Source: an uncultured Pseudomonadota bacterium (GTDB taxonomy: Bacteria > Pseudomonadota > Alphaproteobacteria > RF32 > CAG-239). From it: DNA of 35,614 bases. The stretch spans positions 1-35,614 of the forward strand of contig CADBSM010000080.1 of NCBI GenBank assembly GCA_902797315.1, given 5' to 3'. Position numbers and translations under genes: made by a program. Below the pieces are notes generated by a model. It was not told the origin of the DNA. It saw only the letters and a list, made by a program, of their open reading frames with translations, and searched no databases. Position 1 is the stretch's first letter. Every line of letters begins with the position of its first letter. Shown here piece by piece: positions 5,873-35,614 of this stretch.

Positions 5873-5936
5873 TTTTCCCTTTATTTCATAATCTAAAAGA
5901 TAGCTCAAATATTCTTGAAAATATGTTAAAATTTGC

Positions 5937-5964
5937 TTGCATATTCGCAGATAATTTTTATAAT
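5937..5964 (+). promoter_or_regulatory. Candidate promoter of the hydrogenase operon (TTGCAT-N16-TATAAT)
   Basis: Hexamers at 5937-5942 and 5959-5964, about 40 nt upstream of the first hydrogenase gene. The region is AT-rich, so this is only a candidate. Confidence 0.3.
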
Positions 5965-6001
5965 ATCGGCGGAGTTTATATCTATTTTTAAGGAGTATAA
6001 A

Positions 6002-6478
6002 ATGTCAGAAGAGACTTCTCAAGCCTGTCAGGTTGCCGATAAGTGGCGTAAAAAACGCGGCTCGCTGATTATGGCTTTACATGAAATTCAAGGAATTAAA
6101 GGTTATGTCGAATTTAAAGATGCTATGGATTTGTCTGAACGTATGAATATCCCTTTGGCGCGTATCTATGAAGTTTTGACATTTTATAACTTTTTTAAAC
6201 TTGTAGCCCCTGGAAAAGCTGTTATTTCAGTGTGTACGGGTACGGCTTGTTACTTAAAAGGCAATGATAAAGTACTCGATAAGTTCAAATCTGAGCTCAA
6301 AATTAAAGAGGGTGAAAGTACAGCAGATGGCTTATTCCATTTGCAATGTGTGCGTTGTGTCGGTTGCTGTGGTTTAGCGCCGGTTTGCGTTGTTAACGGT
6401 AAAACATACGGACGTATGACGCCAGAACAAGTGCCTGCAATTTTAGATGAATGGCGCGAAGCGTTTAAGGAGAACTAA
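6002..6478 (+). CDS. hydC: NuoE/HydC-type [2Fe-2S] thioredoxin-like ferredoxin subunit
   Basis: Cys pattern CTGTAC...CVRCVGCCGLAP is typical of the NuoE 24-kDa family. AAGGAG lies upstream of ATG 6002; the track ORF starts at 5933. Confidence 0.85.
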   Translation: MSEETSQACQVADKWRKKRGSLIMALHEIQGIKGYVEFKDAMDLSERMNIPLARIYEVLTFYNFFKLVAPGKAVISVCTGTACYLKGNDKVLDKFKSELKIKEGESTADGLFHLQCVRCVGCCGLAPVCVVNGKTYGRMTPEQVPAILDEWREAFKEN

Positions 6479-6479
6479 A

Positions 6480-8162
6480 ATGGTTGATATGGCTGAAATT
6501 AATAAAAGATTTGACATTCATGAAATTGCAAAAAACAAGCTTGCAGAAATTGAAAAATATATTTGTACGATTTATTGCTGTCATTCAACTGGCTGTAAAT
6601 CTTCAGGAAGCGATGAGATCATTGCTCTCATTTCTCAAATTGTTGAGGAGAACGGGTTAAACGAAAAAATTCGTGTCGTTGCTACAGGGTGTATGGGTCT
6701 TTGTGCTCAAGGACCTCTTATCAGAGTTGAAATCAAAGGGCAAAAAGATTTGCTTTTTAAACGTGTTGATTTGGATGCAACAGCAGATATTATGCGCCAA
6801 TATGTTGTTCCTGCCATTGAGGCAAAAGGGCAGGCTGTTCTTCCTGCTAATCTTGAACGCTATGTTTTGTCGCTTGATTTGCCTTTCTTTAAAAAACAAG
6901 AAAAAGTTGTGTTGCAAAATGCTGGGCATTTGGATCCAGAAGACATTACTGAATATATGGCTCATGGTGGTTATTTGGCTTTAGAAAAAGCATTGAAAAC
7001 GATGAGCCCCAAAGAAGTTGTTGATGAGATTAAAAAATCAGGCTTAAGAGGCCGAGGCGGTGGCGGTTTTTCGACAGGTATGAAATGGGAGCTAGCGGCA
7101 GCTGTGCCAACTGTTGATGAAAAATTTATTATCTGTAATGGTGATGAAGGAGACCCGGGGGCATATATGGACCGCTCTATTTTGGAAGGGGATCCTCATG
7201 CCGTGATTGAAGGTATGATGATTGCAGCCTATGCAATTGGGGCAACCTCTGGCTGGTTCTATGTTCGTGCCGAATATCCGCTTGCTGTTGAGAGGCTTGA
7301 AAAAGCGATTAAAGCTTGTAAAAAGAATAGGCTTCTTGGCAACAATATTATGGGCACAGATTTTTGTTTTAATGTTGATATTAGGCTTGGCGCAGGAGCT
7401 TTTGTTTGCGGTGAAGAAACGGCACTTATTCATTCAATTGAAGGTGCAAGAGGTACGCCTCGTCCACGACCGCCTTATCCAACTAACAAAGGTTTATGGG
7501 AAAAACCATCATGTGTTAACAATGTGGAAACCTTAGCAAATGTTTCTAAAATTCTTTTGAAAGGCGCTGATTGGTTTGCATCTTTTGGAACAGAAACATC
7601 TAAAGGAACAAAGGTGTTTGCCTTAACAGGTCAGGTTGAACACTCTGGCTTGATTGAAGTTCCGATGGGGACAACAATTAATGAAATTGTTAATGAAATC
7701 GGAGGCGGCGTACCAATGGGAAAAACCTTAAAGGCCGTGCAAACAGGTGGCCCATCAGGCGGTGTTATACCTGCAGAATATATGGATATGCCAGTCTGTT
7801 ATGAAGAACTTAAAAAGCTTGGCTCAATCATGGGTTCGGGTGGTATGATAGTGATTGATGACAGCTCGGACATGGTTTCACTGGCTAAATTCTACCTCGA
7901 TTTTACAGTTGATGAATCGTGCGGCAAATGTGCGCCATGCCGTATAGGCGGCAAACAAATGCTGACTTTGCTTGATAAAATTAATCGAGGCCGAGGCAAA
8001 AAGAAAGATTTGGAGCTTTTAAAGCAAATCGCATTTGCTATGCAAAAGGCTTCTCTGTGCGGACTTGGTCAGACGGCTCCGAATCCGGTGCTCTCAACCC
8101 TAAGGTTCTATGAAAAAGAATATACAAACAAATTGCTTGATACCCCAAAAGAGGAGAAATAG
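6480..8162 (+). CDS. hydB: NuoF/HydB-type NAD(P)H- and FMN-binding subunit with an N-terminal [2Fe-2S] domain
   Basis: N-terminal thioredoxin-like Cys set (CCHSTGC...GCMGLC), FMN site GRGGGGFSTGMKW, CNGDEGDPGAYMDR, and a [4Fe-4S] site CGKCAPCR...CGLGQ. The start at 6480 follows AAGGAG. No C-terminal 2x[4Fe-4S] ferredoxin module is present. Confidence 0.88.
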   Translation: MVDMAEINKRFDIHEIAKNKLAEIEKYICTIYCCHSTGCKSSGSDEIIALISQIVEENGLNEKIRVVATGCMGLCAQGPLIRVEIKGQKDLLFKRVDLDATADIMRQYVVPAIEAKGQAVLPANLERYVLSLDLPFFKKQEKVVLQNAGHLDPEDITEYMAHGGYLALEKALKTMSPKEVVDEIKKSGLRGRGGGGFSTGMKWELAAAVPTVDEKFIICNGDEGDPGAYMDRSILEGDPHAVIEGMMIAAYAIGATSGWFYVRAEYPLAVERLEKAIKACKKNRLLGNNIMGTDFCFNVDIRLGAGAFVCGEETALIHSIEGARGTPRPRPPYPTNKGLWEKPSCVNNVETLANVSKILLKGADWFASFGTETSKGTKVFALTGQVEHSGLIEVPMGTTINEIVNEIGGGVPMGKTLKAVQTGGPSGGVIPAEYMDMPVCYEELKKLGSIMGSGGMIVIDDSSDMVSLAKFYLDFTVDESCGKCAPCRIGGKQMLTLLDKINRGRGKKKDLELLKQIAFAMQKASLCGLGQTAPNPVLSTLRFYEKEYTNKLLDTPKEEK

Positions 8163-8165
8163 AAA

Positions 8166-9929
8166 ATGGTTAAAGTAACAATTAATGGTATAGAAGTTGA
8201 AGCAAAAGATGGGTCAAGCATTTTAGATGCTGCACGTCTGGCTGCAGTTCATATTCCAACACTGTGTAAACACCCAGATGTTGATCCTTCGGCAGGTTGC
8301 GGTCTGTGTATTGTCAAAGTCGGCGGACGTATTATGCGTTCTTGTTGTACACCCGTTTCTGATGGTATGCAAATTGTGACAGAAGACGAGGAATTGCAGC
8401 AAATTAGAAAAACCGTTTTAAAGCTGATTTTGAGCAACCACCCGAATGATTGCTTGAATTGTTCTCGAAGCGGTAGCTGTGAATTGCAAGATATGACAGC
8501 TCAAATGGGCATTGATCAAAATGAAATTATCAAAATGCTTTCGCAAGAACCTAAAGACGATACAACTAAAGCAATTGTTCTTGATCCTTCAAAATGTATT
8601 GTCTGCGGTAGATGTGTTAACATTTGCCAGAATGTTCAAAACGTTTGGGCTTTAAGCTATTTGAACAGGGGATTTGTGACCAAAGTAACAGGCGCTAACG
8701 ATACAAAACTTGGCGATTCTCCTTGCATTAAATGCGGTCAATGTGCGGCCCATTGCCCTGTCGGTGCAATTACTGATTATGATAACACAGATAAAGTGTT
8801 TGAACTTTTGGCAAACAAAGACTACATAACGGTTGTGCAAATTGCACCGGCTGTGCGTGTGGCTTTAGGTGAAGAGTTCGGTTTTGATTTTGGAAGCAAT
8901 TTAACGGGTAAAATTTATGCTGCTTTACGTAGACTTGGTTTTTCAAAAGTTTTCGATACCAATTTCGGTGCAGATTTGACTATCATTGAAGAGGCTTCAG
9001 AGTTTGTGAAACGTTTTACCCAAAACGATCATCTGCCAATGTTTACGTCTTGCTGCCCAGCGTGGGTTGACTATTTAGAAAAATATTATCCGGAGAATAT
9101 TCCAAACTTGTCATCTTGTAAATCGCCTCATGAAATGGTTGGTGCCATGGCAAAGACTTATTGGGCAGAAAAAGCAGGGGTAGATTCGTCTAAAGTCAAA
9201 GTTGTGTCTGTTATGCCCTGTACAGCTAAAAAATGGGAAATTTCCAGAGACGAGACAATGAGTTCTTCAGGATATCAAGATGTTGATGAGGTGATTACCA
9301 CTCGAGAGCTTGCTAAAATGATTAAACGTGCTGGTATTGATTTTAAGAACTTAAAAGAGGAAGAAGCAGACAATCCACTTGGAGAATATTCCGGTGCGGC
9401 AACAATTTTTGGTGTGACCGGCGGCGTGATGACCGCAGCTTTAAGAACAGCATACTTCTACATTACAGGCGAGGAATTAGGTGCGTTTAATTTTGAAGCC
9501 ATTGAAGGTTTGGAGGCTGTTAAAGTTGCAGAAATTGATATCAAAGGGACGAAAGTACGTATTGCAGTCGTCAATGGTGTCGGCAATGTCGAACCAGTGA
9601 TGGAGCAAATTAATCAAGCGATTTTAAATGGTTTAGAGCTTCCTTATCACTTTGTTGAAGTCATGGCTTGTCCAGGCGGCTGTATTGCGGGCGGCGGACA
9701 ACCGCGCGTTATGGGGCAACGTTTTGAAAAGCCTTGGGGTATTAATGATGAAATTAGAAAGCTCCGTTCATGCGGCTTGAATTGTGAAGATGCCTGCGCT
9801 CAAAACAGATTGTCTCATAAAAATGAATCAATTCAAAAGCTTTATGAGAATTATCTTGGTAAACCTGGCGATGAAAAAGCACATCATCTTTTACATACAA
9901 AATATACAAAACGTGCTTTGTATAAATAG
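8166..9929 (+). CDS. hydA: [FeFe]-hydrogenase catalytic subunit (M3-type architecture)
   Basis: H-cluster motifs L1 FTSCCPAW, L2 MPCTAKKWE and L3 EVMACPGGCIAGGGQP. The N-terminus carries a [2Fe-2S] ferredoxin-like domain, a His-ligated cluster HPNDCLNCSRSGSCELQ, and two CxxCxxCxxxCP motifs. Confidence 0.93.
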   Translation: MVKVTINGIEVEAKDGSSILDAARLAAVHIPTLCKHPDVDPSAGCGLCIVKVGGRIMRSCCTPVSDGMQIVTEDEELQQIRKTVLKLILSNHPNDCLNCSRSGSCELQDMTAQMGIDQNEIIKMLSQEPKDDTTKAIVLDPSKCIVCGRCVNICQNVQNVWALSYLNRGFVTKVTGANDTKLGDSPCIKCGQCAAHCPVGAITDYDNTDKVFELLANKDYITVVQIAPAVRVALGEEFGFDFGSNLTGKIYAALRRLGFSKVFDTNFGADLTIIEEASEFVKRFTQNDHLPMFTSCCPAWVDYLEKYYPENIPNLSSCKSPHEMVGAMAKTYWAEKAGVDSSKVKVVSVMPCTAKKWEISRDETMSSSGYQDVDEVITTRELAKMIKRAGIDFKNLKEEEADNPLGEYSGAATIFGVTGGVMTAALRTAYFYITGEELGAFNFEAIEGLEAVKVAEIDIKGTKVRIAVVNGVGNVEPVMEQINQAILNGLELPYHFVEVMACPGGCIAGGGQPRVMGQRFEKPWGINDEIRKLRSCGLNCEDACAQNRLSHKNESIQKLYENYLGKPGDEKAHHLLHTKYTKRALYK

Positions 9930-9980: not shown

Positions 9981-10379
9981 TTATTCATACCAAAGCCAAG
10001 AGATGATTCTTTTGAACAGTGTTGGAATCTTACGAAATGGATTTTGGATTTTAGTTGTCCGGATTTTTGAAATTCGGCGCACCAGAAAGTCTAGGCATAA
10101 TAGCACTAGTTGTACTGTAAACATCCAAAATACGCAGATTGACAAACAACCAAGGAATAATACGACATTTCCCCCAAAAGTTTCAGCGGGGCTTGTGATG
10201 ACTGCAATAAGCAACAATATCGGGCATAAAACTATACCGATACGGCAAATTCTTTGAAGCCAGATGTTTTGCATTTTCAATTCCAACGAACAGGCATAGG
10301 AATTTGTTGCAAAAAAAACTTGGCAACAGGCGACAAAGGTTAGGATGCTTGCTACGGTGATGAGTATAATATCTGCCAT
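9981..10379 (-). CDS. Small hydrophobic membrane protein (about 3 TM segments), unknown function
   Basis: A 132-aa ORF with three long hydrophobic stretches and a basic C-terminal tail. It abuts the terminator. Confidence 0.5.
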   Translation of the reverse strand: MADIILITVASILTFVACCQVFFATNSYACSLELKMQNIWLQRICRIGIVLCPILLLIAVITSPAETFGGNVVLFLGCLSICVFWMFTVQLVLLCLDFLVRRISKIRTTKIQNPFRKIPTLFKRIISWLWYE

Positions 10380-10393
10380 AATATGAATAAAAA

Positions 10394-10780
10394 TTAGTTG
10401 TGATAAAAACTGCTGTCTCCATGCAAAAGCCAGCCCAAAAAAGTTTTCATGAGGTCAGCAATTTTTGCGGCAAGCAATACGCAAAGCCAAAAAAAAGCAA
10501 CCCCACAGCATACAAGAACAGGTCCAAATATCAAATTGATCACAACCGACCAGCTTTTATTAGGTGGAATTTCACCAAAAAATGCAAATGGAGTCGGAAT
10601 GGCAATCAAAGAGGTGACAACCCATAATAAGATAAGGATAACGAACATAAGTCGCACCGCAAATTGAACAGTCTTGTTTCGATAGCAAAAAGTGCCAAAA
10701 GAGTCGACACTTTCCCGACCCTCCATATAGGAGAGAAACAGGGCAATGATAAACATTGCAAGTATTAAAAAGTGACACAT
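10394..10780 (-). CDS. Small hydrophobic membrane protein (about 3 TM segments), unknown function
   Basis: A 128-aa ORF in tandem with the previous one, with similar size and topology. Confidence 0.5.
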   Translation of the reverse strand: MCHFLILAMFIIALFLSYMEGRESVDSFGTFCYRNKTVQFAVRLMFVILILLWVVTSLIAIPTPFAFFGEIPPNKSWSVVINLIFGPVLVCCGVAFFWLCVLLAAKIADLMKTFLGWLLHGDSSFYHN

Positions 10781-10941
10781 AAATAATAAGATAAAAAATA
10801 TTAAAGCATTTGAATTTTAGACGAAAAGAAAAAAAAGTCAACACATATTTTGATAAAAAATCGGTACGGCTCTTGACAACAGATTTTTGAAACACTACCT
10901 AAACATTAGTTCAAAATTTTTAATAAAAAGGAATGATTGAA

Positions 10942-11229
10942 ATGAATATTAAACCATTACATGATCGTGTTTTGATCAAGCGTATTGAAGATATGCAAAA
11001 AACAGCCGGCGGAATTATTATTCCGGATACGGCAAAAGAAAAACCTTCTGAAGGTGTTGTTGAAGCCGTTGGACAAGGCCGCTTAACACCGGAGGGCAAA
11101 CTTGCTCCAATGACAGTGAAAGTCGGTGATAAAGTTCTTTTTGGTAAGTATGCCGGAACAGAGGTTAAACTTGATGGTGAACCGAGATTGATTATCAGAG
11201 AAGAAGATATTTTAGCAATTGTTGAATAA
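10942..11229 (+). CDS. groES: Co-chaperonin GroES
   Basis: [14 protein letters not shown]...[13 protein letters not shown]...[14 protein letters not shown]. The start at 10942 gives the canonical 95-aa length. Confidence 0.93.
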
Positions 11230-12894
<1,665 letters not shown>

Positions 12895-13043: not shown

Positions 13044-13442
13044 ATGGTAAAAGCAAGTGCACTCGAAAATGTCAACGCAATGGTTTTAACCGAAAAGCTC
13101 GGTGAATTTATCAAAGAGTCTAAAGTTAAAGCGCTTAGTGATAAGTGCCGTATTGTTCGAATGACTTTGTCGCAAAAAATTCATCACTTTCCGGTCAATA
13201 TACCTTTCATTGCGGCTGTTGTTGAATGTGAAGAAGGAAAACAGGCTGTCTTTTTCATCAAGCGCAAAAAATTCGCGCTCATTGAAGGAGGGGCTATCTC
13301 TTCTTCTAAAAGCGTCGGAGAAAGCTTTGAAATTGATAAAGTAAAGTACGTTCTCGAGGATACAATCAACGGAATGCCTCGCTATAAGCCGGTATTCCCG
13401 AAGTCAGACAAAGCGGCAAGAAAGGCCGTTGAAGTCGAATAG
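13044..13442 (+). CDS. Hypothetical protein (132 aa)
   Basis: An ORF preceded by AAGAGAAAAG. I recognise no motif. Confidence 0.5.
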   Translation: MVKASALENVNAMVLTEKLGEFIKESKVKALSDKCRIVRMTLSQKIHHFPVNIPFIAAVVECEEGKQAVFFIKRKKFALIEGGAISSSKSVGESFEIDKVKYVLEDTINGMPRYKPVFPKSDKAARKAVEVE

Positions 13443-13673: not shown

Positions 13674-13713
13674 AACAAAACCCCTTCGAACATTTGTTCG
13701 AAGGGGTTTTGTT
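13674..13713. terminator. Bidirectional terminator (about 18-bp stem)
   Basis: aacaaaaccccttcgaac / gttcgaaggggttttgtt. It overlaps the stop codon of the convergent minus-strand ORF. Confidence 0.85.
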
Positions 13714-14269
13714 AACAGTCTTTAGTCTGGTCGTTTTTATCGACTTCCATGACCGAAACTTTATAATACCCATGGTGTTTAATGTAAATCACTTTTACTT
13801 TTAAGGTCAACCCTTTTGTAAATCGCCTTTCATCACCGACACAATCCAACTTGACTAAAAAGGTTCGGCATCCTTCTTTAATCTTTCCCACAGCAATATC
13901 CTGCACAAAGTACAAGCCGCGTCTTTGGGTTGTGAGATAACATGATTGCATCTCATAGATTTTATCCTTTTTTAGAGTATTGGGCCCCATTAAAAGCCAA
14001 GTACGATAAATGGTAAAATAAACAATACCATAAACCAAGATTCTTAAAATCCAGTCTTTCCCGGGCGGAAAAATCAGATTTATATGTACAATCAGACACC
14101 CTAAAATGATGGCCTCAGTGAGGCAAATTGCGTTTAAAAGGTTCGTGTTCACATAAAATCGCAAATTATGGGAGGCGAAATTAAAAAGCAGATGAACAAA
14201 AAAAACCATGCCTAAAATTAAGCAAAAAACATCATAACTCATAATCGTCAAATTTATAAAATGAAACAA
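13712..14269 (-). CDS. Membrane protein, unknown function
   Basis: The N-terminal half has 3-4 hydrophobic helices and the C-terminal ~70 aa are soluble. An alternative start is ATG 14242. Confidence 0.55.
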   Translation of the reverse strand: MFHFINLTIMSYDVFCLILGMVFFVHLLFNFASHNLRFYVNTNLLNAICLTEAIILGCLIVHINLIFPPGKDWILRILVYGIVYFTIYRTWLLMGPNTLKKDKIYEMQSCYLTTQRRGLYFVQDIAVGKIKEGCRTFLVKLDCVGDERRFTKGLTLKVKVIYIKHHGYYKVSVMEVDKNDQTKDC

Positions 14270-14925: not shown

Positions 14926-15303
14926 TTATTTAAATTTTTGAACATACATGTCAAACTTTTTGGCATCACGTTCTGACCAGCCCATAATATAGTGGTCGCC
15001 CATGCAAAACAGGGGTGTCCCAAGCGAATTCTGATTTAGGTTGAATTTTTTGACGCAAGCCATAAATAATTGATAATTTTGCTTTTGGCGAACATCTAAA
15101 TAACGCATATCTAGATAAGGATATTTACCTTTAACGTATGCGGCGGCGTGGTGACAATGAGTGCAACCATGTTGATAAAAAAAGTAAATTTGATGTGCAT
15201 CAAGTTCATGTAATACAACTTGGTCTTGTTCGTTCTTTTCAGCGCAGGCGGACAAGCTTAAAGCAAAGCTCAAAATAAATACTCTGAAAAATTGCAAAAA
15301 CAT
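14926..15303 (-). CDS. Thioredoxin/glutaredoxin-fold CxxC lipoprotein (periplasmic thiol:disulfide oxidoreductase-like)
   Basis: With the start at ATG 15303 the N-terminus is MFLQFFRVFILSFALSLSAC, a lipobox L-S-A-C. The redox motif is CTHC. The longer track ORF (to 15354) would overlap the upstream gene by 35 nt. Confidence 0.65.
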   Translation of the reverse strand: MFLQFFRVFILSFALSLSACAEKNEQDQVVLHELDAHQIYFFYQHGCTHCHHAAAYVKGKYPYLDMRYLDVRQKQNYQLFMACVKKFNLNQNSLGTPLFCMGDHYIMGWSERDAKKFDMYVQKFK

Positions 15304-15319
15304 CGTTGTTAAAGAGCCC

Positions 15320-15898
15320 TTATTCAATGCAACAATCCACTGCTTTTCTGACAAAAGCTTTCATTTTTGAGAGAGCGCCTTGTGGCTTATCTTTATTGGC
15401 ATCTTCTTTCATGCTAACAGAATCGTTGATTTTTTCAGCAATTTTTTTGACATCTTCAACGCTGTCTTCAACCCATTTGGCGTTTTCAATAGAAAGCATA
15501 TTCATGTTTAAGCCCCAAAACAAGCAATACATATCATATGCCTTGTTGAACAAATCATATGCTTGTTCTTTGTTGCCAAGACTTTGTTGCTTAGTTCCCA
15601 CTTCCATCAAACGCATCGAGGTTGCAAGCAAATGTTTTGAAATGCACCAAACTTCACCTTCATAAGAGGGAATAATTTTTTGCATTAAACGTTTTCTTGT
15701 TTCTCTGACTTCTTCAATTAAATCGTAAAATGATGTTTTGCCCGTTTTCGCACCTGAAAAAACCAAGTGTTCTTCAATGGAAATAAGGTTCATAATTGCA
15801 ATAGTCAAATCCTGATCTGAAGATAAATCCTTTGGGTTGACCTTTTTAGAGGCATCAATTCGTTCAACGAATTCTTTAAGGTTTTGAGCTTTTTTCAT
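15320..15898 (-). CDS. Hypothetical protein (192 aa), first gene of a three-gene minus-strand operon
   Basis: A clean ORF that is helical and charged, ending in DCCIE. I recognise no family. Confidence 0.6.
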   Translation of the reverse strand: MKKAQNLKEFVERIDASKKVNPKDLSSDQDLTIAIMNLISIEEHLVFSGAKTGKTSFYDLIEEVRETRKRLMQKIIPSYEGEVWCISKHLLATSMRLMEVGTKQQSLGNKEQAYDLFNKAYDMYCLFWGLNMNMLSIENAKWVEDSVEDVKKIAEKINDSVSMKEDANKDKPQGALSKMKAFVRKAVDCCIE

Positions 15899-28489: not shown

Positions 28490-28744
28490 GTATTTAAACC
28501 TCAAATAAAATTAAAACAAATTTTCAGACCTTTTCACCAGTCTTGTTTTTTTGTTATCAAATTTAGGCTCTTTTGACAAGCTTTTTTTTAAATGTTAATC
28601 CACAAAAAGATTCTTTTGGTTTTTAACTATTTGATTTTGTGGTGTTTTATTGAGTTTTCTTTTTCTTGGCTCACGTGCATAAATAAGTTGTTATCTTTTG
28701 ATCAATACTTATATATATCACAAAATTGTCAAAAAGGAGAAAAG

Positions 28745-29671
28745 ATGAAAGTTGCAATCGTGGGAGCAGGACAGGTCGGAAGCGCTACAGCTTTTGCGCT
28801 TATTTTAAGGGGTGTGGCAAGAGAGGTCGTTTTGGTTGATATAAACAAACAAAAAGCTACAGCTGAAGCACTTGATATTTCACACGCTACAACTTTTGCA
28901 TATGCCGGCAAAATTTATAGTGGAGATTATGCAGATATAAAGGGTTCTGACGTCGTTATTATTGCTGCCGGGGCTAATCAAAAGCCCAAAGAGACGCGGA
29001 TTTCTTTAATGCAGAGAAATGTTGCAATCTTAAAAAATATTGTTGACAATATCCTAAAATATGCGCCTAAAGCCTTTGTTTTGGTGGCTTCTAATCCCGT
29101 TGATATTATGACAAATCACACATTAAAGCTTTCAGGTCTTCCTCAAAATCAGGTTTTTGGAAGTGGTACAATCCTAGATACGTCAAGATTTCGTACGCTA
29201 ATTGGTGAATATTTCGGTGTTTCTTCAAAATCGGTACATGCTAATGTTTTGGGCGAACATGGGGATAGTGAGGTTTTGGTGTGGTCAAATGCTGATATTG
29301 GAACACTTTCCATTGAAGAGTTTGCTCAAGAACGCCACAAAAGTTTATCTGAAGAAGTGAAGGGTGAAATAGATAATCATGTGCGTTATGCCGCTTACAA
29401 AATTATTGAAGGCAAAGGCGCAACTTTTTATGGCATTGCAGGAGCTCTTGCGCGTATTTGTCAGGCAATATCTACTAATGAAAATGCTGTTTTAACAGTT
29501 TCTTCGTTTCATCAAAACATTGAAGGGGTCGAAGATGTTTGCTTGTCTTTACCTTCAATTGTTAATAAAACAGGAATTGAACAAGTTTTTATGCCTTCAC
29601 TTTCAGACAAAGAACGTGAACTGTTGGCTTTAAGTGCTTTGAAGCTCAAAAATTACATAAAAAACATTTAA
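28745..29671 (+). CDS. ldh: L-lactate dehydrogenase
   Basis: MKVAIVGAGQVGSATAFAL; AGANQKPKETR, where Gln at the specificity position is the LDH type rather than the MDH type; SNPVD; DTSRFR; LGEHGDSE. AAGGAG precedes ATG 28745. Confidence 0.87.
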   Translation: MKVAIVGAGQVGSATAFALILRGVAREVVLVDINKQKATAEALDISHATTFAYAGKIYSGDYADIKGSDVVIIAAGANQKPKETRISLMQRNVAILKNIVDNILKYAPKAFVLVASNPVDIMTNHTLKLSGLPQNQVFGSGTILDTSRFRTLIGEYFGVSSKSVHANVLGEHGDSEVLVWSNADIGTLSIEEFAQERHKSLSEEVKGEIDNHVRYAAYKIIEGKGATFYGIAGALARICQAISTNENAVLTVSSFHQNIEGVEDVCLSLPSIVNKTGIEQVFMPSLSDKERELLALSALKLKNYIKNI

Positions 29672-29745: not shown

Positions 29746-30402
29746 ATGCGTAGAAGCCATGAAAAAGGTGCGTCCTTTGACGATGTTCTTAAAGCGTTGT
29801 TTTTATTTTTTTTGTTCGCCGGGGTCGTTTTTTATTGGGTGTCAACATTGCTCCATCGTCATTATATGGAACAAATTGCTGAGCAAGTCGGTACTTTCTT
29901 TACAAAATATGAGACTGAATTACCCGGTTTTATAAGACAAAAACTCAATCTCAATTCATCTAAGCAACTCATTAATTATGGCTTGGTACCTGAATGCAAA
30001 GAGAAAGTCAGTGTTTTTAACAAAAACAAACAGGTTTGTGCTTTGCCGCTTGGACAGATAGAGATAAATACCGAATATTTGGATCCGTTTTATTATACCT
30101 ACTTGTACATTCATTTTACGGATATATACAAAAGAGTTTCTTGTGAAAACTTTTTATCTGTTGGCTGGGAAAAACTTCTTCCTCAAGAATGGTGGGGTCC
30201 GAAGAGTTATATCGGTGTAATGAGTGAAAATACAACGGGAAAAATTTATTTTTCACTTAATCCGCAATATATTAAAAATGACGGAGCCGAGGCAAAGCCT
30301 ACGGAAGAACACATAAAACAAGTATGTGAAGTTTGCAGAGATAGTTTTTATTGCACAATCCTGTTTTTCTTTGATTTTGATAAAAACCTATACAAGTCAT
30401 AA
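29746..30402 (+). CDS. Hypothetical membrane-anchored protein (218 aa, one N-terminal TM segment, 7 Cys)
   Basis: An ORF with the N-terminal hydrophobic helix ALFLFFLFAGVVFYWVSTLL. I recognise no family. It occupies the position where lptB-rpoN usually precede hpf. Confidence 0.5.
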   Translation: MRRSHEKGASFDDVLKALFLFFLFAGVVFYWVSTLLHRHYMEQIAEQVGTFFTKYETELPGFIRQKLNLNSSKQLINYGLVPECKEKVSVFNKNKQVCALPLGQIEINTEYLDPFYYTYLYIHFTDIYKRVSCENFLSVGWEKLLPQEWWGPKSYIGVMSENTTGKIYFSLNPQYIKNDGAEAKPTEEHIKQVCEVCRDSFYCTILFFFDFDKNLYKS

Positions 30403-31498: not shown

Positions 31499-31524
31499 TT
31501 TTTAAAAAAAATCAGGCATTTCTG

Positions 31525-31571
31525 CTTTGTTCTAAAGGTTTTTATCTCTTTTAGAACAAAGTATTTTTTTT
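31525..31571 (+). terminator. Rho-independent terminator after ptsN
   Basis: 12-bp stem ctttgttctaaa (31525-31536) / tttagaacaaag (31550-31561) followed by a T8 run. Confidence 0.8.
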
Positions 31572-31597
31572 GTTACAAATATTTCACAAAAAAACAA

Positions 31598-31626
31598 TTG
31601 ATAAGAGCAAAAATAAAATGTATAAT
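31598..31626 (+). promoter_or_regulatory. Near-consensus sigma70 promoter TTGATA-N17-TATAAT upstream of the giant ORF
   Basis: TTGATA at 31598-31603, a 17-nt spacer, and TATAAT at 31621-31626. GAGG at 31655-31658 lies 5 nt before ATG 31664. Confidence 0.55.
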
Positions 31627-31663
31627 CTTTCCAAGGTATTGCAATATTTTTTTAGAGGTCCTC

Positions 31664-34600
31664 ATGATCAAATTTTTTGTTTTTGCGTTTATTCTTTTTT
31701 CTTCAATAAAGCCGACTTTTGCGCAGACAGAAGATCCGCAGCATTTGGAAAGTCGTTGCGGCAAGGGTTGCGTTGATAAACTTCTTGATTGTGAAGAGCT
31801 TGGCTATCAAAAAAATCTTTATTGTCCTGAAGGATATGTGATTTGTCCGTTTGATCCAGAATATATCTGGTGCAAAACTTATACTTGTGACATGGGCGGT
31901 CTTTATACAGAGGATGAAGTTTCTGCTAAAAGGGCAGAGGGATATCTATGCCACAAGTACAGATATCACGGACACACTTGTTATGAGTGCGATGATGTAG
32001 ATGAAGAGCGCTGCCAGTGGACGGCTGCCAATGTTGGACAAGGCAAGCCATCAGGTCAGCTTTGTCCCAATGGTAAATACACAGAATGTGTCAAAGAGTG
32101 TTATTTGCAAGATAAATCATCTCAAATTCCTTCAGGAGAAGCAGTTGTGCCGGTGTATACAAAATGCTTCAACTGCGGGGTTGAAGAAAGAATCGTGACA
32201 GATTTTGAGTGTAAGGCGGGTTATATTAAAAAGAATGGAAAATGTGAACCCAATGGGTGTCCGTTACCTGTGACACATACTGATATTTTGTATGGAACAA
32301 ATGTGACAGATTGTGATACCAAAGCTCACCCTGAAGGTTGGTATTTTGAATCAAACGGCAGAAGCGGAGACAAAGCTTGCGGTCGCTGTATTCCTAAAGA
32401 ATGTCAGGCTGGATACACGCCAGGTGAGGTATGTCCTTCAGGTGCTGGATATCAGCATCACACGGCAGGCTATTCAGGTGATCAGCTTTGCGGTTATTGC
32501 GAAAACCTAACGTGTGTTGCGCCATATAGCGCAAACTATCAAAAAATAGAAGATTGTCCGAAGCTTTCTAATGAAAATTGGAGCATAAGCAAAGCATGGA
32601 CATATCAAAGGTCCACTCAGCAGTCGGGTGATTTGGCTTGCGGCAGGTGTGAGCCCAATCAGTGTAATGCAGGTTATACTGAGCAATATCAAAGTGTTGA
32701 AGATTGCCCGAATTCGACCGGATATGTGTGGGATTATGATAAAACAAAATTTTATGGCGATTTATATTGCGGTGTTTGTATCCCCAAAACTTGCGAAAAA
32801 GGTTCAATAGAACTGACGATTTCAGATTGTCCGTACGTTAGTTCGGTTGGTGCTTATATACAAGACACTGGTTTGTACATGGGAGAAAAACCATGCAAGG
32901 AATGCCAATGCGATGCGTCAAGCTGTCCATTTAAAACAACTCAGAGCAGCAGTTCGGCTGTCGTTGTCGGTGATGGTGGAGAGGGTGTCACACCATGTTG
33001 CGATGGTGTATCATACCAAGGTTGTAAGGTTAAAGCTTCGTGCTGCGGTTCTACGGTCAAGAACATTGAACATGCCACAGGTTATAAGGTCAATTGCACG
33101 GCTTGCGGCGAAACATATTGGGGTGCGACAGCGTGTGAAGGAAAATACAAGCCTAATGCTTGCGGTATTTGTGTAGAACAGCGTTGTGAAGATATCAGCA
33201 ATCAGCTCTTTTCAAAACCAGATTGCACCAATCCTTTTCCCAACCTGCCATTTACACGTTATGGCTATACTGCCGTTCCTTCAACAGAATATCCCGGTTG
33301 CTACAGCTGTGTTTGTGACGTGACAGCAAGCGAGTGTCCTTATACAGATGATTTTCGAGATACTTCGCGGGCATATATCGGTCTTGGACAAGGTCGAAAA
33401 GTGTGTTGCGACGGTTCTTATCGGGAATGTGTCAACGAAACTTGTCAAGGTTTGCAACAATGCCCTGAAAATGCTGATCTGTGCTCACAGTGTGATGCCT
33501 GCGGAAAAACATATTACAGAGTACACAACTGTAAAACAGGTTATGCCGGTGTAAGTTGTGAGGAGTGCGCAGCAAACTATGTTGAACAAAACGGAGTTTG
33601 TATTCCGGTTGTTGGTTGCGGAGACCATGGCTATCAGGTAGATGATGGGTGTGTGTGTGATGAAGGTTACAAAGGTAAGAATTGTGATGAATGTGATGAG
33701 GGTTATGTCAAAGACAAAAACAGCGGATTGTGTCGACCGGCTGAATGTTCGGATAATAAGTGGAAAACTGCATGCGATTCAGACTGTGAAAATTGTGTTT
33801 CAAAAACGATGAAATCCGGCAAAAGTACGATTCAATGCTTTGAAGTAACCCCTAAAAACTGTAATGAAATATGTGCTAATGCAGAAGGCGTTATTTCCGA
33901 CAGCAGTATGTGTGGTGAATCTAGCTTAGAACGCTGGAAACAAGGTAGGGGGCTTTACCAATATTTAAGTTCGGCTACGACGAGAAAGAGCGTTTCAGTT
34001 TGCGGCAAAACATGTTATGTGCCTGACGGATGCCCTGAAGGTGAGGCTTTAAGCAATGATCAACATCAGCAAAAAATTGAAGAAGGTTACGTTTGTCTGG
34101 AATCACATGAGAATGCAGTAGGTGAAATGTGCTATCTTTGTGTGCCTGATAGTTGTGAGGGCGACTTTGTCACAGAAAAACAAAAAAATGAGGCTGAAGC
34201 AAGCGGTGCAATATGTACACGTGTAGCTGCTTTTTCAACAACAGGTGGTTTTTGCTACAAATGTGTTTCAGATACTTGTGACGATGATTATGTGTGGTCA
34301 AAGGAAAAATTGTCTTTAGATTTGTATGCTTATGCAACGCAAGATATTTTCACTTACGGACCGCCACAGTCTTCTGAATTTGCAAGTTATATGAGTTTTC
34401 CTGAAGATATTTATGAAGGTCAAGGAAAAGAGTATTACATAGTTTATCCATATGCAGATTGTGATAACCATTCGGAACCGGGACAAGACGTATTGTGTTA
34501 CAAAAATGCTGCCGGACATTATTGTTATCAAAGATATGATACATATTTCGGGGCAACCGAAGAACCCATATGTTCTAGTTTAACGCACAATACTTTGTAT

Positions 34601-35614
34601 GAAACAGATACTGCTTGTAATGCAGCTATTTCTGGCTATACAGAGCCACTGTTTTCAAGCGAGGAAAGCCCTTATTACGGGGGTGTTCAACCAACAGCAT
34701 TATGTCACCAATGCCGAGATCAAAATCAAAATGGACAATGGGCGCTTTATTGGTATCCTGAATGCCGCCAGACGGCCAATCGTGATTTTGCTTTGAGAAG
34801 TGGTGCTGTCAGCCTATTTTATAACAATCAATCATCTTCATTAGGCTATTTTGACAATACTGATGAAGAAAATGTGTGTTGTGCAGAAGATTTCATTACG
34901 GGCGATTCTGATTCTGAGTTTTCGGGTTCTGGGTGTGATTTAGCTGATTATAAGAGACAATGCAACAATACTTCTGGCTGTTCTTATACAGGTGGAGATT
35001 GCAAGTGCCAAAACGGTCTCTCACTCGATCACCCATGTGCGCTAAATAGTGGCATTGGTTTCGCGCGCTATGTTTACAAAAATAAATTGATAAATATTAA
35101 AAGTTATCATCTAGGGTCAAATGCTCAAGTTTGTTATGCTTTAGATGGCAAATGCGTGTACAATCCGGAAGCTTCATCTCGTTGTGAGGATGAGGACTGT
35201 TCTGTTAAAACGTGTTCTGAAGAGGTTTATCCTTTTACAGCAATGAGTGTGATCACAGGCGGATATATTGATGAGACAAGTGAATCTTGTTCGCCTGTTG
35301 AGTGGATTAATGGCGTTTGCACCAATCTTCCGACACGCTACAGCTGTGTGGCATGTGCTTCTCTGGGACGCACACTTTCAGCAGATTGCCAATCTTGTCA
35401 ATGCGATATGGCGCAAGGATATTATGATTCTGAAGAAGATTGTTTACAAACTAACAATAGTTGTAAAAAAGATACGCTGAGCCAATGTTGGATTCAAAAC
35501 CTGACATGTGCGGATAGAAATTTGCTAGAAGCTTCAGAATGTGTAGAAGATGCTTTTTATAAGTGTGTTTCTGTCGATGCAAAATGTTCTCAAAAAGTTG
35601 CAAAATCGTGCGAA
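31664..35614 (+). CDS. Giant secreted cysteine-rich repeat protein, 3'-truncated by the window edge (at least 1,317 aa)
   Basis: I translated it by hand line by line and found no stop in this frame from 31535 to the last base. It is missing from the ORF track, which appears to list only ORFs that end in a stop codon. The N-terminus MIKFFVFAFILFSSIKPTFA/QTEDP is a Sec signal peptide. By hand count there are about 129 Cys (~10%). Cys modules recur, and a promoter and RBS lie upstream. Confidence 0.85.
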   Translation, partial: MIKFFVFAFILFSSIKPTFAQTEDPQHLESRCGKGCVDKLLDCEELGYQKNLYCPEGYVICPFDPEYIWCKTYTCDMGGLYTEDEVSAKRAEGYLCHKYRYHGHTCYECDDVDEERCQWTAANVGQGKPSGQLCPNGKYTECVKECYLQDKSSQIPSGEAVVPVYTKCFNCGVEERIVTDFECKAGYIKKNGKCEPNGCPLPVTHTDILYGTNVTDCDTKAHPEGWYFESNGRSGDKACGRCIPKECQAGYTPGEVCPSGAGYQHHTAGYSGDQLCGYCENLTCVAPYSANYQKIEDCPKLSNENWSISKAWTYQRSTQQSGDLACGRCEPNQCNAGYTEQYQSVEDCPNSTGYVWDYDKTKFYGDLYCGVCIPKTCEKGSIELTISDCPYVSSVGAYIQDTGLYMGEKPCKECQCDASSCPFKTTQSSSSAVVVGDGGEGVTPCCDGVSYQGCKVKASCCGSTVKNIEHATGYKVNCTACGETYWGATACEGKYKPNACGICVEQRCEDISNQLFSKPDCTNPFPNLPFTRYGYTAVPSTEYPGCYSCVCDVTASECPYTDDFRDTSRAYIGLGQGRKVCCDGSYRECVNETCQGLQQCPENADLCSQCDACGKTYYRVHNCKTGYAGVSCEECAANYVEQNGVCIPVVGCGDHGYQVDDGCVCDEGYKGKNCDECDEGYVKDKNSGLCRPAECSDNKWKTACDSDCENCVSKTMKSGKSTIQCFEVTPKNCNEICANAEGVISDSSMCGESSLERWKQGRGLYQYLSSATTRKSVSVCGKTCYVPDGCPEGEALSNDQHQQKIEEGYVCLESHENAVGEMCYLCVPDSCEGDFVTEKQKNEAEASGAICTRVAAFSTTGGFCYKCVSDTCDDDYVWSKEKLSLDLYAYATQDIFTYGPPQSSEFASYMSFPEDIYEGQGKEYYIVYPYADCDNHSEPGQDVLCYKNAAGHYCYQRYDTYFGATEEPICSSLTHNTLYETDTACNAAISGYTEPLFSSEESPYYGGVQPTALCHQCRDQNQNGQWALYWYPECRQTANRDFALRSGAVSLFYNNQSSSLGYFDNTDEENVCCAEDFITGDSDSEFSGSGCDLADYKRQCNNTSGCSYTGGDCKCQNGLSLDHPCALNSGIGFARYVYKNKLINIKSYHLGSNAQVCYALDGKCVYNPEASSRCEDEDCSVKTCSEEVYPFTAMSVITGGYIDETSESCSPVEWINGVCTNLPTRYSCVACASLGRTLSADCQSCQCDMAQGYYDSEEDCLQTNNSCKKDTLSQCWIQNLTCADRNLLEASECVEDAFYKCVSVDAKCSQKVAKSCE
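32210..32926 (+). repeat. Five tandem degenerate ~40-65-aa Cys modules inside the giant ORF
   Basis: Modules start at Cys183, 247, 284, 334 and 377. Each follows C-x-(A/K)-G-Y-(T/I)...(E/S/T)-D-C-(P/D)...G-(D/E)-x-x-C-G-x-C-x-P-x-x, for example GDKACGRCIPKE, GDQLCGYCENLT, GDLACGRCEPNQ and GDLYCGVCIPKT. Confidence 0.6.
32792..33607 (+). repeat. Duplicated ~130-140-aa super-module inside the giant ORF (32792-33184 and 33185-33607)
   Basis: The units align at CE..(x)DC.., PCKECQCDASSCPF vs GCYSCVCDVTASECPY, TPCCDGVSYQGC vs KVCCDGSYREC, and CTACGETYWGATAC vs CDACGKTYYRVHNC. Confidence 0.6.

Follow-up and report, generated by a model that had tools for sequence, protein, structure and literature searches.

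A giant, cysteine-rich, predicted secreted protein with a conserved head domain and EGF-like features in uncultured ruminant-gut alphaproteobacteria

Rods of epidermal growth factor (EGF) and laminin-type EGF (LE) modules, as in laminin, netrin, Tie2, Notch and teneurin, are built from small, Cys-knotted beta-hairpin modules strung into an elongated structure. Giardia variant-specific surface proteins (VSPs) and ciliate immobilisation antigens contain about 10% Cys with frequent CxxC and are large, extracellular and strain-variable. The chlamydial proteins OmcB and OmcA are Sec-exported and Cys-rich and are thought to form a disulfide-cross-linked layer. TpsA exoproteins are giant and secreted, and possess an obligatorily N-terminal conserved domain followed by a variable C-terminal part. 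The passengers of type V secretion systems are generally Cys-poor, and in a review of these systems the 18 Cys of chlamydial Pmps were deemed remarkable (PMC8151025). Here we analysed contig CADBSM010000080.1 (assembly GCA_902797315.1) of an uncultured alphaproteobacterium of the lineage RF32; CAG-239, which was read over positions 1 to 35,614 and is called the window below. Its last 4 kb carries a giant gene for a Cys-rich protein, named below the giant protein, which is compared here with these systems.

31664..35614, + strand: coding sequence of the giant Cys-rich protein, 1,317 codons, 3' end cut off by the contig end

The giant Cys-rich open reading frame (ORF), noticed in a preliminary description of this DNA, is confirmed. 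As claimed there, the + frame containing position 31664 is open from 31535 to the end of the window; translation gave 1,360 codons up to 35614 with zero stops, and the stop-to-stop extent is 31499 to the last base. Given the base composition of the window, 1,360 codons would be free of stops by chance with a probability of about 8e-44. ORFs which run off the source are omitted by the ORF lister, and its track therefore shows nothing but short shadow ORFs here. The product from ATG 31664 has 1,317 residues, of which 129 (9.8%) are Cys, in agreement with the earlier count. Gly, Ser, Glu, Tyr and Asp are likewise abundant, and His is scarce (1.4%). No 19-residue Kyte-Doolittle window past the N-terminus reached a mean above 0.9; the product has no transmembrane segment there, and the earlier statement that no long hydrophobic segment follows was borne out. 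The preliminary description also spoke of many CxxC, CC and CxC clusters, which is wrong for CC and CxC. CxxC occurs 20 times where 12.8 are expected, no more than a mild excess (P = 0.02), whereas CC (4) and CxC (5) are significantly depleted (about 12.7 expected).

A search of 5.8 billion proteins identified seven clusters (P0001-P0007) of 'hypothetical proteins' with 38-49% identity and 1,081-1,920 residues. The full orthologues measure about 1,640-1,920 residues, and the 1,081-residue entry is a split copy. The sources are ruminant-gut alphaproteobacterial metagenome-assembled genomes (MAGs), from roe deer rumen, reindeer and cattle (RUG803), and UBA1254. Every orthologous locus possesses the same order, with mltG-fabF-acpP, then hpf-ptsN, the giant gene and a convergent ATPase-tilS-cpoB-pal group, and five or more assemblies, obtained independently and from different animals, show the same junction from ptsN to the giant gene. 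The identity of ptsN as the upstream gene, given earlier, was verified. GC content at third codon positions is 0.308 in the giant ORF and 0.313 +/- 0.044 in the other genes of the window, and its relative synonymous codon usage correlates with that of the window at r = 0.93. The overall GC content of the giant ORF is higher (41.9% vs 37.6%) because of codon position 2, that is, of its amino-acid composition. The giant ORF is a native chromosomal gene of an uncultured anaerobic ruminant-gut alphaproteobacterium. Its distribution appears narrow, confined to few uncultured ruminant-gut alphaproteobacteria.

In the family alignment, the 1,317 residues of the window copy correspond to about 1,580-1,700 orthologue residues. 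Relative to this copy the orthologues carry an extra insert of about 270 residues and two additional EGF-like units, and they run 30-320 residues beyond the end of the window contig. From this we infer that the window copy is without its last ~30-320 residues and that the full gene would comprise roughly 1,350-1,650 codons. UBA1254 has an intact gene of about 1,700 codons. One MAG has the orthologue annotated as a pair of adjacent ORFs, P0005 and P0061 (IKS23_02720 and IKS23_02725), a split compatible with strain heterogeneity, with a frameshift or phase variation, or with an assembly error in the variable half. Three independent assemblies (the window and loci L011 and L013) end within the giant gene, and such breaks fit a repetitive or strain-variable region. 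Extension of the contig via the exact ptsN product gave only a 967-bp rumen contig, and the true 3' end was not recovered.

The upstream region of the gene contains the following signals.

31523..31573, + strand: intrinsic-terminator-like hairpin after ptsN, with a 16-bp AT-rich stem and a 9-nt loop, then UAUUUUUUUU
31570..31597, + strand: conserved A-rich block TTGTTACAAATATTTCACAAAAAAAC just 5' of the -35 element, TGTCA/TTACAAATATTTCACAAAAAAA across orthologous loci
31598..31626, + strand: sigma-70-type promoter TTGATA-N17-TATAAT, matching at 11/12 positions
31655..31658, + strand: GAGG ribosome-binding site, 5 nt before the ATG, read from the sequence

A ptsN terminator, this promoter and this ribosome-binding site had been proposed before, together with an own transcription unit for the giant gene, and each of these proposals held. 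The hairpin and its U-run fold at -22.1 kcal/mol (z = -5.07; 0/200 shuffles equally stable), and it was left uncalled by a simple consensus terminator scan because its loop is 9 nt long. About one 11/12 promoter match is expected by chance within the AT-rich stretch; in five orthologous loci, with proteins of ~40-50% identity, the -35, the -10 and the distance between them are conserved. Similarly, GAGG and ATG are invariant among the five loci compared, so that from -35 to ATG the signals of the transcription unit are nearly invariant. The A-rich block, a candidate UP element or regulator-binding site, is nearly invariant in the five loci as well and varies less than the coding sequence.

The protein is composed of a signal peptide, a head domain, a series of Cys-rich modules and a divergent C-terminal region, as predicted mainly by profile hidden Markov models (HMMs).

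31664..31723, + strand: signal peptide MIKFFVFAFILFSSIKPTFA, residues 1-20, the sole strongly hydrophobic segment, with predicted cleavage before QTEDP
31757..32017, + strand: head domain, residues 32-118, 10 conserved Cys, HMM E = 2.6e-46
32018..32284, + strand: ~85-residue Cys module, copy 1, about residues 109-207 (HMM match at residues 109-196)
32285..32794, + strand: four tandem 4-Cys beta-hairpin modules, residues 208-247, 247-284, 284-334 and 334-377, from HMM matches
32909..33586, + strand: ~85-residue module, copies 2 and 3, residues 416-505 and 551-641 with a linker between them, CCDG in each, from HMM matches
33599..33733, + strand: EGF-like / laminin-type-EGF-like module, residues 646-690, with the signature CVCDEGYKGKNC at residues 663-674
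33734..35614, + strand: divergent Cys-rich C-terminal region, residues 691-1317, cut off by the contig end

The Sec-type signal peptide of the preliminary description was found again. Its cleavage site was inferred by rule, without a predictor; at the same position the orthologues carry MKKILFLALVLLAPAASA / YDE, and a signal peptide is kept across the superfamily. A lipoprotein reading was rejected, as the cleavage site has no lipobox of the form [LVI][ASTVI][GAS]C and the first Cys is residue 32, 12 residues past the predicted cleavage. The orthologues have their first Cys at +5. Module boundaries come from HMMs built in this analysis, that of the head from the orthologues. Self-BLAST of the giant protein found no internal repeats, and the modules became visible only with HMMs seeded on the repeats of P0023. 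The head has the core motif LGY..CPEGYI.CPFD..Y.WCK.Y.C...YHG..CY.C. The 4-Cys hairpin module has the consensus C.xGY...[DE]C...GW/Y...SGD..CG.C.PK.C and matched at E = 3e-16 to 3e-10 per copy with the P0023-seeded HMM; a fifth, degenerate copy is discernible by eye at about residues 378-421. The Cys of copies 2 and 3 of the ~85-residue module are invariant across the orthologues. In the C-terminal region, two helix-plus-hairpin units of the form G[YA].C...C[YF].C...C were found by regular expression at residues 808-831 and 848-872.

Conservation decreases steeply along the protein. Residues 1-400 show ~50% identity to the orthologues with 36/36 Cys conserved, and residues 401-811 show 31-42% identity. 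Over residues 691-1317 the identity is ~17-31% and the Cys conservation 0.5-0.7, and beyond residue 900 about 17% identity remains with about half of the Cys conserved. The C-terminal part varies by gain and loss of modules, and the C-termini of the orthologues are unrelated and differ in length by hundreds of residues.

The earlier statement that the protein could be placed in no known bacterial family stands, since no Pfam or NCBIfam family, the EGF-like and laminin-type EGF families PF00053 and PF23106 included, passed its threshold. NCBIfam gave no match, and at E <= 10 the Pfam scan gave a single match, to EGF_Teneurin at residues 651-676, below the cut-off (18.5 bits vs 24.3). No Pfam match at E <= 10 was found for Giardia VSP, the chlamydial Cys-rich outer membrane proteins or the myxococcal Cys-rich repeat (DUF4215). 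The orthologues match EGF_laminin or EGF_DL_JAG with 18.1-18.2 bits, likewise below the cut-off. An EGF_2-type pattern, CxCxx[GP][FYW]x(4,8)C, is present at residues 663-674 and is kept at the homologous position in all orthologues; a single match to this pattern occurs by chance with P = 0.06. The region around it (residues 622-690) is 44% identical to the passenger of the autotransporter P0082 (E = 3e-22), in which the pattern occurs 8 times and both EGF_laminin (60.7 bits) and EGF_Teneurin (57.4 bits) are above threshold. The family profile also matched the EGF regions of Tie2 and Notch with E = 2e-4 to 1e-2. The giant protein is no demonstrable member of any curated family, and what connects it with EGF proteins is the signature together with transitive homology.

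An AlphaFold2 model of residues 21-680, made from an eight-sequence alignment, showed repeated long beta-hairpins, with a mean predicted local distance difference test (pLDDT) of 77 and a predicted template modelling score (pTM) of 0.32. This combination is the pattern expected of well-defined small modules predicted without a fixed mutual orientation. Each 4-Cys module was modelled as a long beta-hairpin with a pLDDT of about 80-88. For the C-terminal half the pLDDT was 49 and the model unusable; a fold search with it gave only short EGF-like matches. With the N-terminal model, the top 15 Foldseek matches in the PDB were all tandem laminin-type EGF rods (netrin, laminin, nidogen, UNC-6), the best with E = 2.8e-3 and prob 0.98, at low TM-scores. 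With the EGF-like unit by itself, EGF modules of laminin, perlecan and reelin matched locally over 32-43 residues with a root-mean-square deviation (rmsd) of 1.9-4.6 A; these matches are not significant. A viral structure library gave only generic elongated-fibre matches with rmsd >30 A. The structure and profile comparisons each give a weak signal, and they agree on laminin-type EGF rods. The likeness to eukaryotic extracellular Cys-rich modules, which the preliminary description had noted, is therefore borne out by the sub-threshold EGF_Teneurin match, the Tie2 and Notch profile matches and the netrin and laminin rods. The further suggestion of a host-derived, eukaryotic transfer is not supported, as the EGF-like module has its nearest relatives in passengers of bacterial autotransporters and the codon usage is native. 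No eukaryote-like family was found among the matches of the exhaustive search.

An exhaustive HMMER search over 1.84 billion representative proteins gave 97 matches at E <= 1e-3 and 15 at E <= 1e-30, which form three groups, namely head-domain proteins, 4-Cys-module proteins and EGF-like-unit proteins. The giant gene is therefore not unique; it has ~15 strongly related representatives and a wider head-domain superfamily. The head domain was found in 54 proteins (36/54 among the 97 representatives) and only directly after the signal peptide. It opens giant Cys-rich proteins of up to 3,041 residues as well as Cys-poor proteins of 500-590 residues with beta-helix-like repeats (P0103, P0104, P0106), and it also occurs as stand-alone secreted proteins of ~155 residues. 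A shorter head motif opens other secreted Cys-rich paralogues, including the 476-residue gene downstream of P0002. The ~85-residue module is present in 8-11 copies in P0077 and P0078. A literature search on the giant-protein family found nothing. The following genes belong to the wider superfamily or lie close to the orthologous loci.

L003 13818-15248, + strand: Cys-rich secreted paralogue of 476 residues, 9.4% Cys, directly downstream of the orthologue P0002
L005 10950-13367, - strand: Cys-rich ORF of at least 806 residues, 8.9% Cys, close to the orthologous locus
L016 6001-7559, + strand: stand-alone head protein P0174 of 157 residues, found on 31 contigs, then a secreted protein of 352 residues

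The Cys-rich secreted paralogues close to the orthologous loci show that the family has expanded within these genomes. In L002, too, the giant gene is separated from the convergent ATPase by a Cys-rich paralogue. The 352-residue protein of L016 contains 9.6% Cys and starts with the shorter head motif NCNQIPSCAELGY...CPFNSAYKKC, and two Cys-poor genes of no assigned function come next.

Among the 4-Cys-module proteins, passengers of PF03797-barrel autotransporters of 1,760-2,130 residues from human-gut metagenomes carry 7-9 copies of the module, and the key member of the EGF-like-unit group is the autotransporter P0082. The related autotransporters possess 57-145 Cys each and contradict the general rule of Cys-poor type V passengers (PMC8151025). 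One of their clusters, P0016, has 298 member sequences, and Cys-rich autotransporters are therefore common in human-gut metagenomes. The human-gut MAG GCA_037246715.1 (L014/L015 1-12324) has two adjacent autotransporters of 3,342 and 2,107 residues, whose passengers contain 6.4-6.9% Cys, with 145 Cys in P0008. By eye, P0008 shows an ankyrin-like stretch directly after its signal peptide. The head domain and the 4-Cys hairpin module are at least two domain types outside the curated libraries.

Compared with the described systems, the working principle of the giant protein resembles that of eukaryotic LE/EGF rods and of bacterial fibrous adhesins. Like the former it would be a string of small beta-hairpin modules, and the signature CxCxxGYxGxxC is present at residues 663-674. 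In contrast to them it possesses only one EGF-looking module, which is below the Pfam cut-off, its head, 4-Cys hairpin and ~85-residue module match no EGF model, and its host is bacterial. The type Va autotransporters (P0008-P0030, P0082, P0114) share with it the Sec signal peptide and the 4-Cys or EGF-like module in the passenger, but they end in a PF03797 barrel, often with BigA-type domains, and are without the head domain. No PF03797 barrel was detected at E <= 0.1 in the complete orthologues P0001, P0002, P0003 and P0007; this absence rests on the orthologues, the C-terminus of the window copy being beyond the contig. OmcB and OmcA are much smaller and of other architecture, whereas the giant family has a hypervariable C-terminal part. 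The Cys content of the giant protein is similar to that of the protist antigens, but the orthologues are without a C-terminal membrane anchor, the gene, its synteny and its codon usage are bacterial, and no relatives of these antigens were found in the exhaustive search. With TpsA the giant protein shares its size, predicted secretion, N-terminal conserved domain and variable C-terminal part. Unlike TpsA, it has no two-partner secretion (TPS) or Haemagg_act domain (Pfam, E <= 10) and no predicted beta-helix, and no TpsB, POTRA or ShlB-type gene was found in the orthologous loci.

The surface or host-interaction role suggested in the preliminary description is plausible from the modules shared with autotransporter passengers, and we give about an even chance to the reading that the giant protein is a disulfide-stapled, rod-like surface or extracellular protein of adhesin-like kind. 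After Sec export, local disulfides would lock its modules into a rigid, elongated rod, displayed on the cell surface or released from it. The rod would most likely be at or beyond the cell surface because the same modules serve in autotransporter passengers, and it could act as an adhesin-like or spacer fibre in contact with host material, feed particles or other cells. In such a fibre the head, being conserved, may provide the constant end for function or attachment, with the variable C-terminal part as the fast-evolving exposed end. Several observations weigh against such a rod. All EGF and LE matches of the giant protein itself are below curated or strict thresholds, and its C-terminal half yielded no usable model. 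No conserved shared C-terminal signal, sorting signal or anchor was found at the orthologue C-termini. The complete orthologues have no outer-membrane translocator, anchor or lipobox, so that surface exposure is argued by analogy alone and the protein could stay periplasmic. The host, moreover, appears anaerobic from its [FeFe]-hydrogenase and L-lactate dehydrogenase (LDH) and lives in a reducing habitat, and many anaerobes are without oxidative protein folding. Finally, the parity of Cys counts among distinct full-length relatives (9 even vs 4 odd) is not significant.

The main rival, to which we attach a real if clearly minor probability, is a periplasmic or envelope structural protein forming a Cys-cross-linked layer or scaffold, comparable in function with OmcA/OmcB and without homology to them, an idea already raised in the preliminary description. 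In its favour, barrel, TPS domain, lipobox and other export or anchor signals are missing from every complete orthologue; the protein is very large and Cys-dense, and the envelope genes pal, cpoB and mltG adjoin the giant gene in every locus. A lattice protein, however, is expected to be conserved over its full length, whereas here the C-terminal third falls to ~17% identity and shifts in length by hundreds of residues. The same modules are found in autotransporter passengers, which are surface-displayed by definition, and the chlamydial outer membrane families are unmatched in Pfam, even at E <= 10. It is improbable that, in an anaerobe without oxidative folding, the Cys instead stay reduced and coordinate Zn, Fe or other metals, with the 4-Cys modules as metal knuckles, or act as a redox or metal buffer. 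The four conserved Cys of each hairpin module, which include CxxC, the mild enrichment of CxxC, the anaerobic genome context and a Cys parity which is not clearly even would agree with this. Against it, every neighbour in structure or sequence is an extracellular EGF/LE module with disulfide bonds, the EGF signature implies a classical three-disulfide knot, His is rare, and neither Pfam nor NCBIfam gave a metal-binding family.

The steep gradient from a conserved N-terminal to a variable C-terminal part, the unrelated ends of the orthologues and the additional gene downstream of P0002 could also recall a polymorphic effector or contact-dependent competition protein of the CdiA or Rhs kind, in which a conserved N-terminal delivery part is followed by a variable C-terminal toxin. 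This reading, which we consider very improbable, fails because the variable ends consist of more of the same 9-10% Cys modular sequence, with no distinct toxin domains, and the downstream gene is a secreted Cys-rich paralogue and not immunity-like; no TPS, Rhs, VENN or toxin family was detected. Least of all do we credit an artefact, in which the contig would be a chimera with eukaryotic DNA (from a ciliate or the host) or the frame would be a pseudogene or open by chance. Its starting points would be the eukaryote-like composition, the end of the contig inside the ORF and the split orthologue P0005/P0061. The recurrent ptsN junction, the conserved promoter and ribosome-binding site, the invariant Cys, the intact gene of UBA1254 and the extremely low probability of chance openness all contradict it. 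The same synteny, the native codon usage and the conserved upstream region together exclude a chimeric join, a eukaryotic contaminant and a chance ORF for practical purposes, and the worry about a mis-join raised in the preliminary description is refuted.

Downstream of the giant gene, the orthologous loci carry a solitary ATPase gene.

L006 9438-10742, - strand: PilT/GspE-like ATPase with a T2SSE domain
L002 15748-17052, - strand: PilT/GspE-like ATPase with a T2SSE domain
L005 5960-7174, - strand: PilT/GspE-like ATPase with a T2SSE domain

These ATPases have 404-434 residues, and their genes, oriented convergently to the giant gene, separate it from tilS-cpoB-pal. The surroundings of the ATPase in the orthologous loci contained no further genes for pili or secretion. 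The ATPase was not used as evidence of type II secretion because it scores under every NCBIfam equivalog cut-off and is without partner secretion genes.

Within the window, the giant gene is accompanied by the genes ptsN, hpf, LDH, fabF, mltG, glycogen phosphorylase, hdaA, cckA and pgm, which mark an alphaproteobacterial chromosome. Other features of the window are as follows.

31-399, + strand: ankyrin-repeat ORF of 122 residues at the very start of the window, matching Ank_2 with E = 1.5e-14
5933-9929, + strand: HydABC-type [FeFe]-hydrogenase, three adjacent genes
5933-6478, + strand: NuoE-like 2Fe-2S subunit, first gene of the HydABC-type set
6447-8162, + strand: NuoF-like subunit, second gene of the set
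8166-9929, + strand: Fe-only hydrogenase large subunit, third gene of the set
28592-29671: LDH

The Ank_2 match agrees with the earlier report of an ankyrin-repeat protein in this genome. The hydrogenase, LDH and glycogen phosphorylase suggest that the organism is anaerobic and fermentative, an unusual lifestyle among alphaproteobacteria. No Dsb gene was found within the window. A link to symbionts of rumen ciliates was considered and is unsupported; a preprint on such symbionts is without mention of proteobacteria, ankyrin or cysteine. Six window ORFs of 128-275 residues have no Pfam match (544-1371, 9981-10780, 13044-13442, 13712-14269, 14926-15898 and 29746-30402), and two of them, 544-1371 and 29746-30402, have no NCBIfam match either. 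The latter lies between the LDH gene and hpf and has an N-terminal hydrophobic segment. ORF 10920-11756 (- strand) is a shadow of groEL (11245-12894).

If the reading of the giant protein as a disulfide-stapled rod is extended to its relatives, the head domain may mark an unrecognised class of bacterial surface fibres, which would combine EGF/LE-like and 4-Cys modules and be exported or attached without known outer-membrane translocator domains. The head would then serve as a handle for secretion or attachment, in its logic like a TPS domain, in anaerobic gut alphaproteobacteria, and the Cys-rich type V passengers of the same lineages would imply an unusual handling of Cys in the periplasm. 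This extension is speculative and we regard it as unlikely. If the proposed role is true, a small uncultured ruminant-gut alphaproteobacterial clade invests in a protein of >1,600 residues with 10% Cys, built from module types which are absent from curated domain libraries, two of them common to Cys-rich autotransporters. Many metagenomic 'giant repeat proteins' remain functionally opaque. Two or three new domain definitions (the head, the 4-Cys hairpin and the ~85-residue module) would improve metagenome annotation. The family could illuminate how strict anaerobes fold and export disulfide-rich proteins, how bacterial EGF-like modules originated and spread, and by what means these little-studied gut bacteria adhere to partners or particles.

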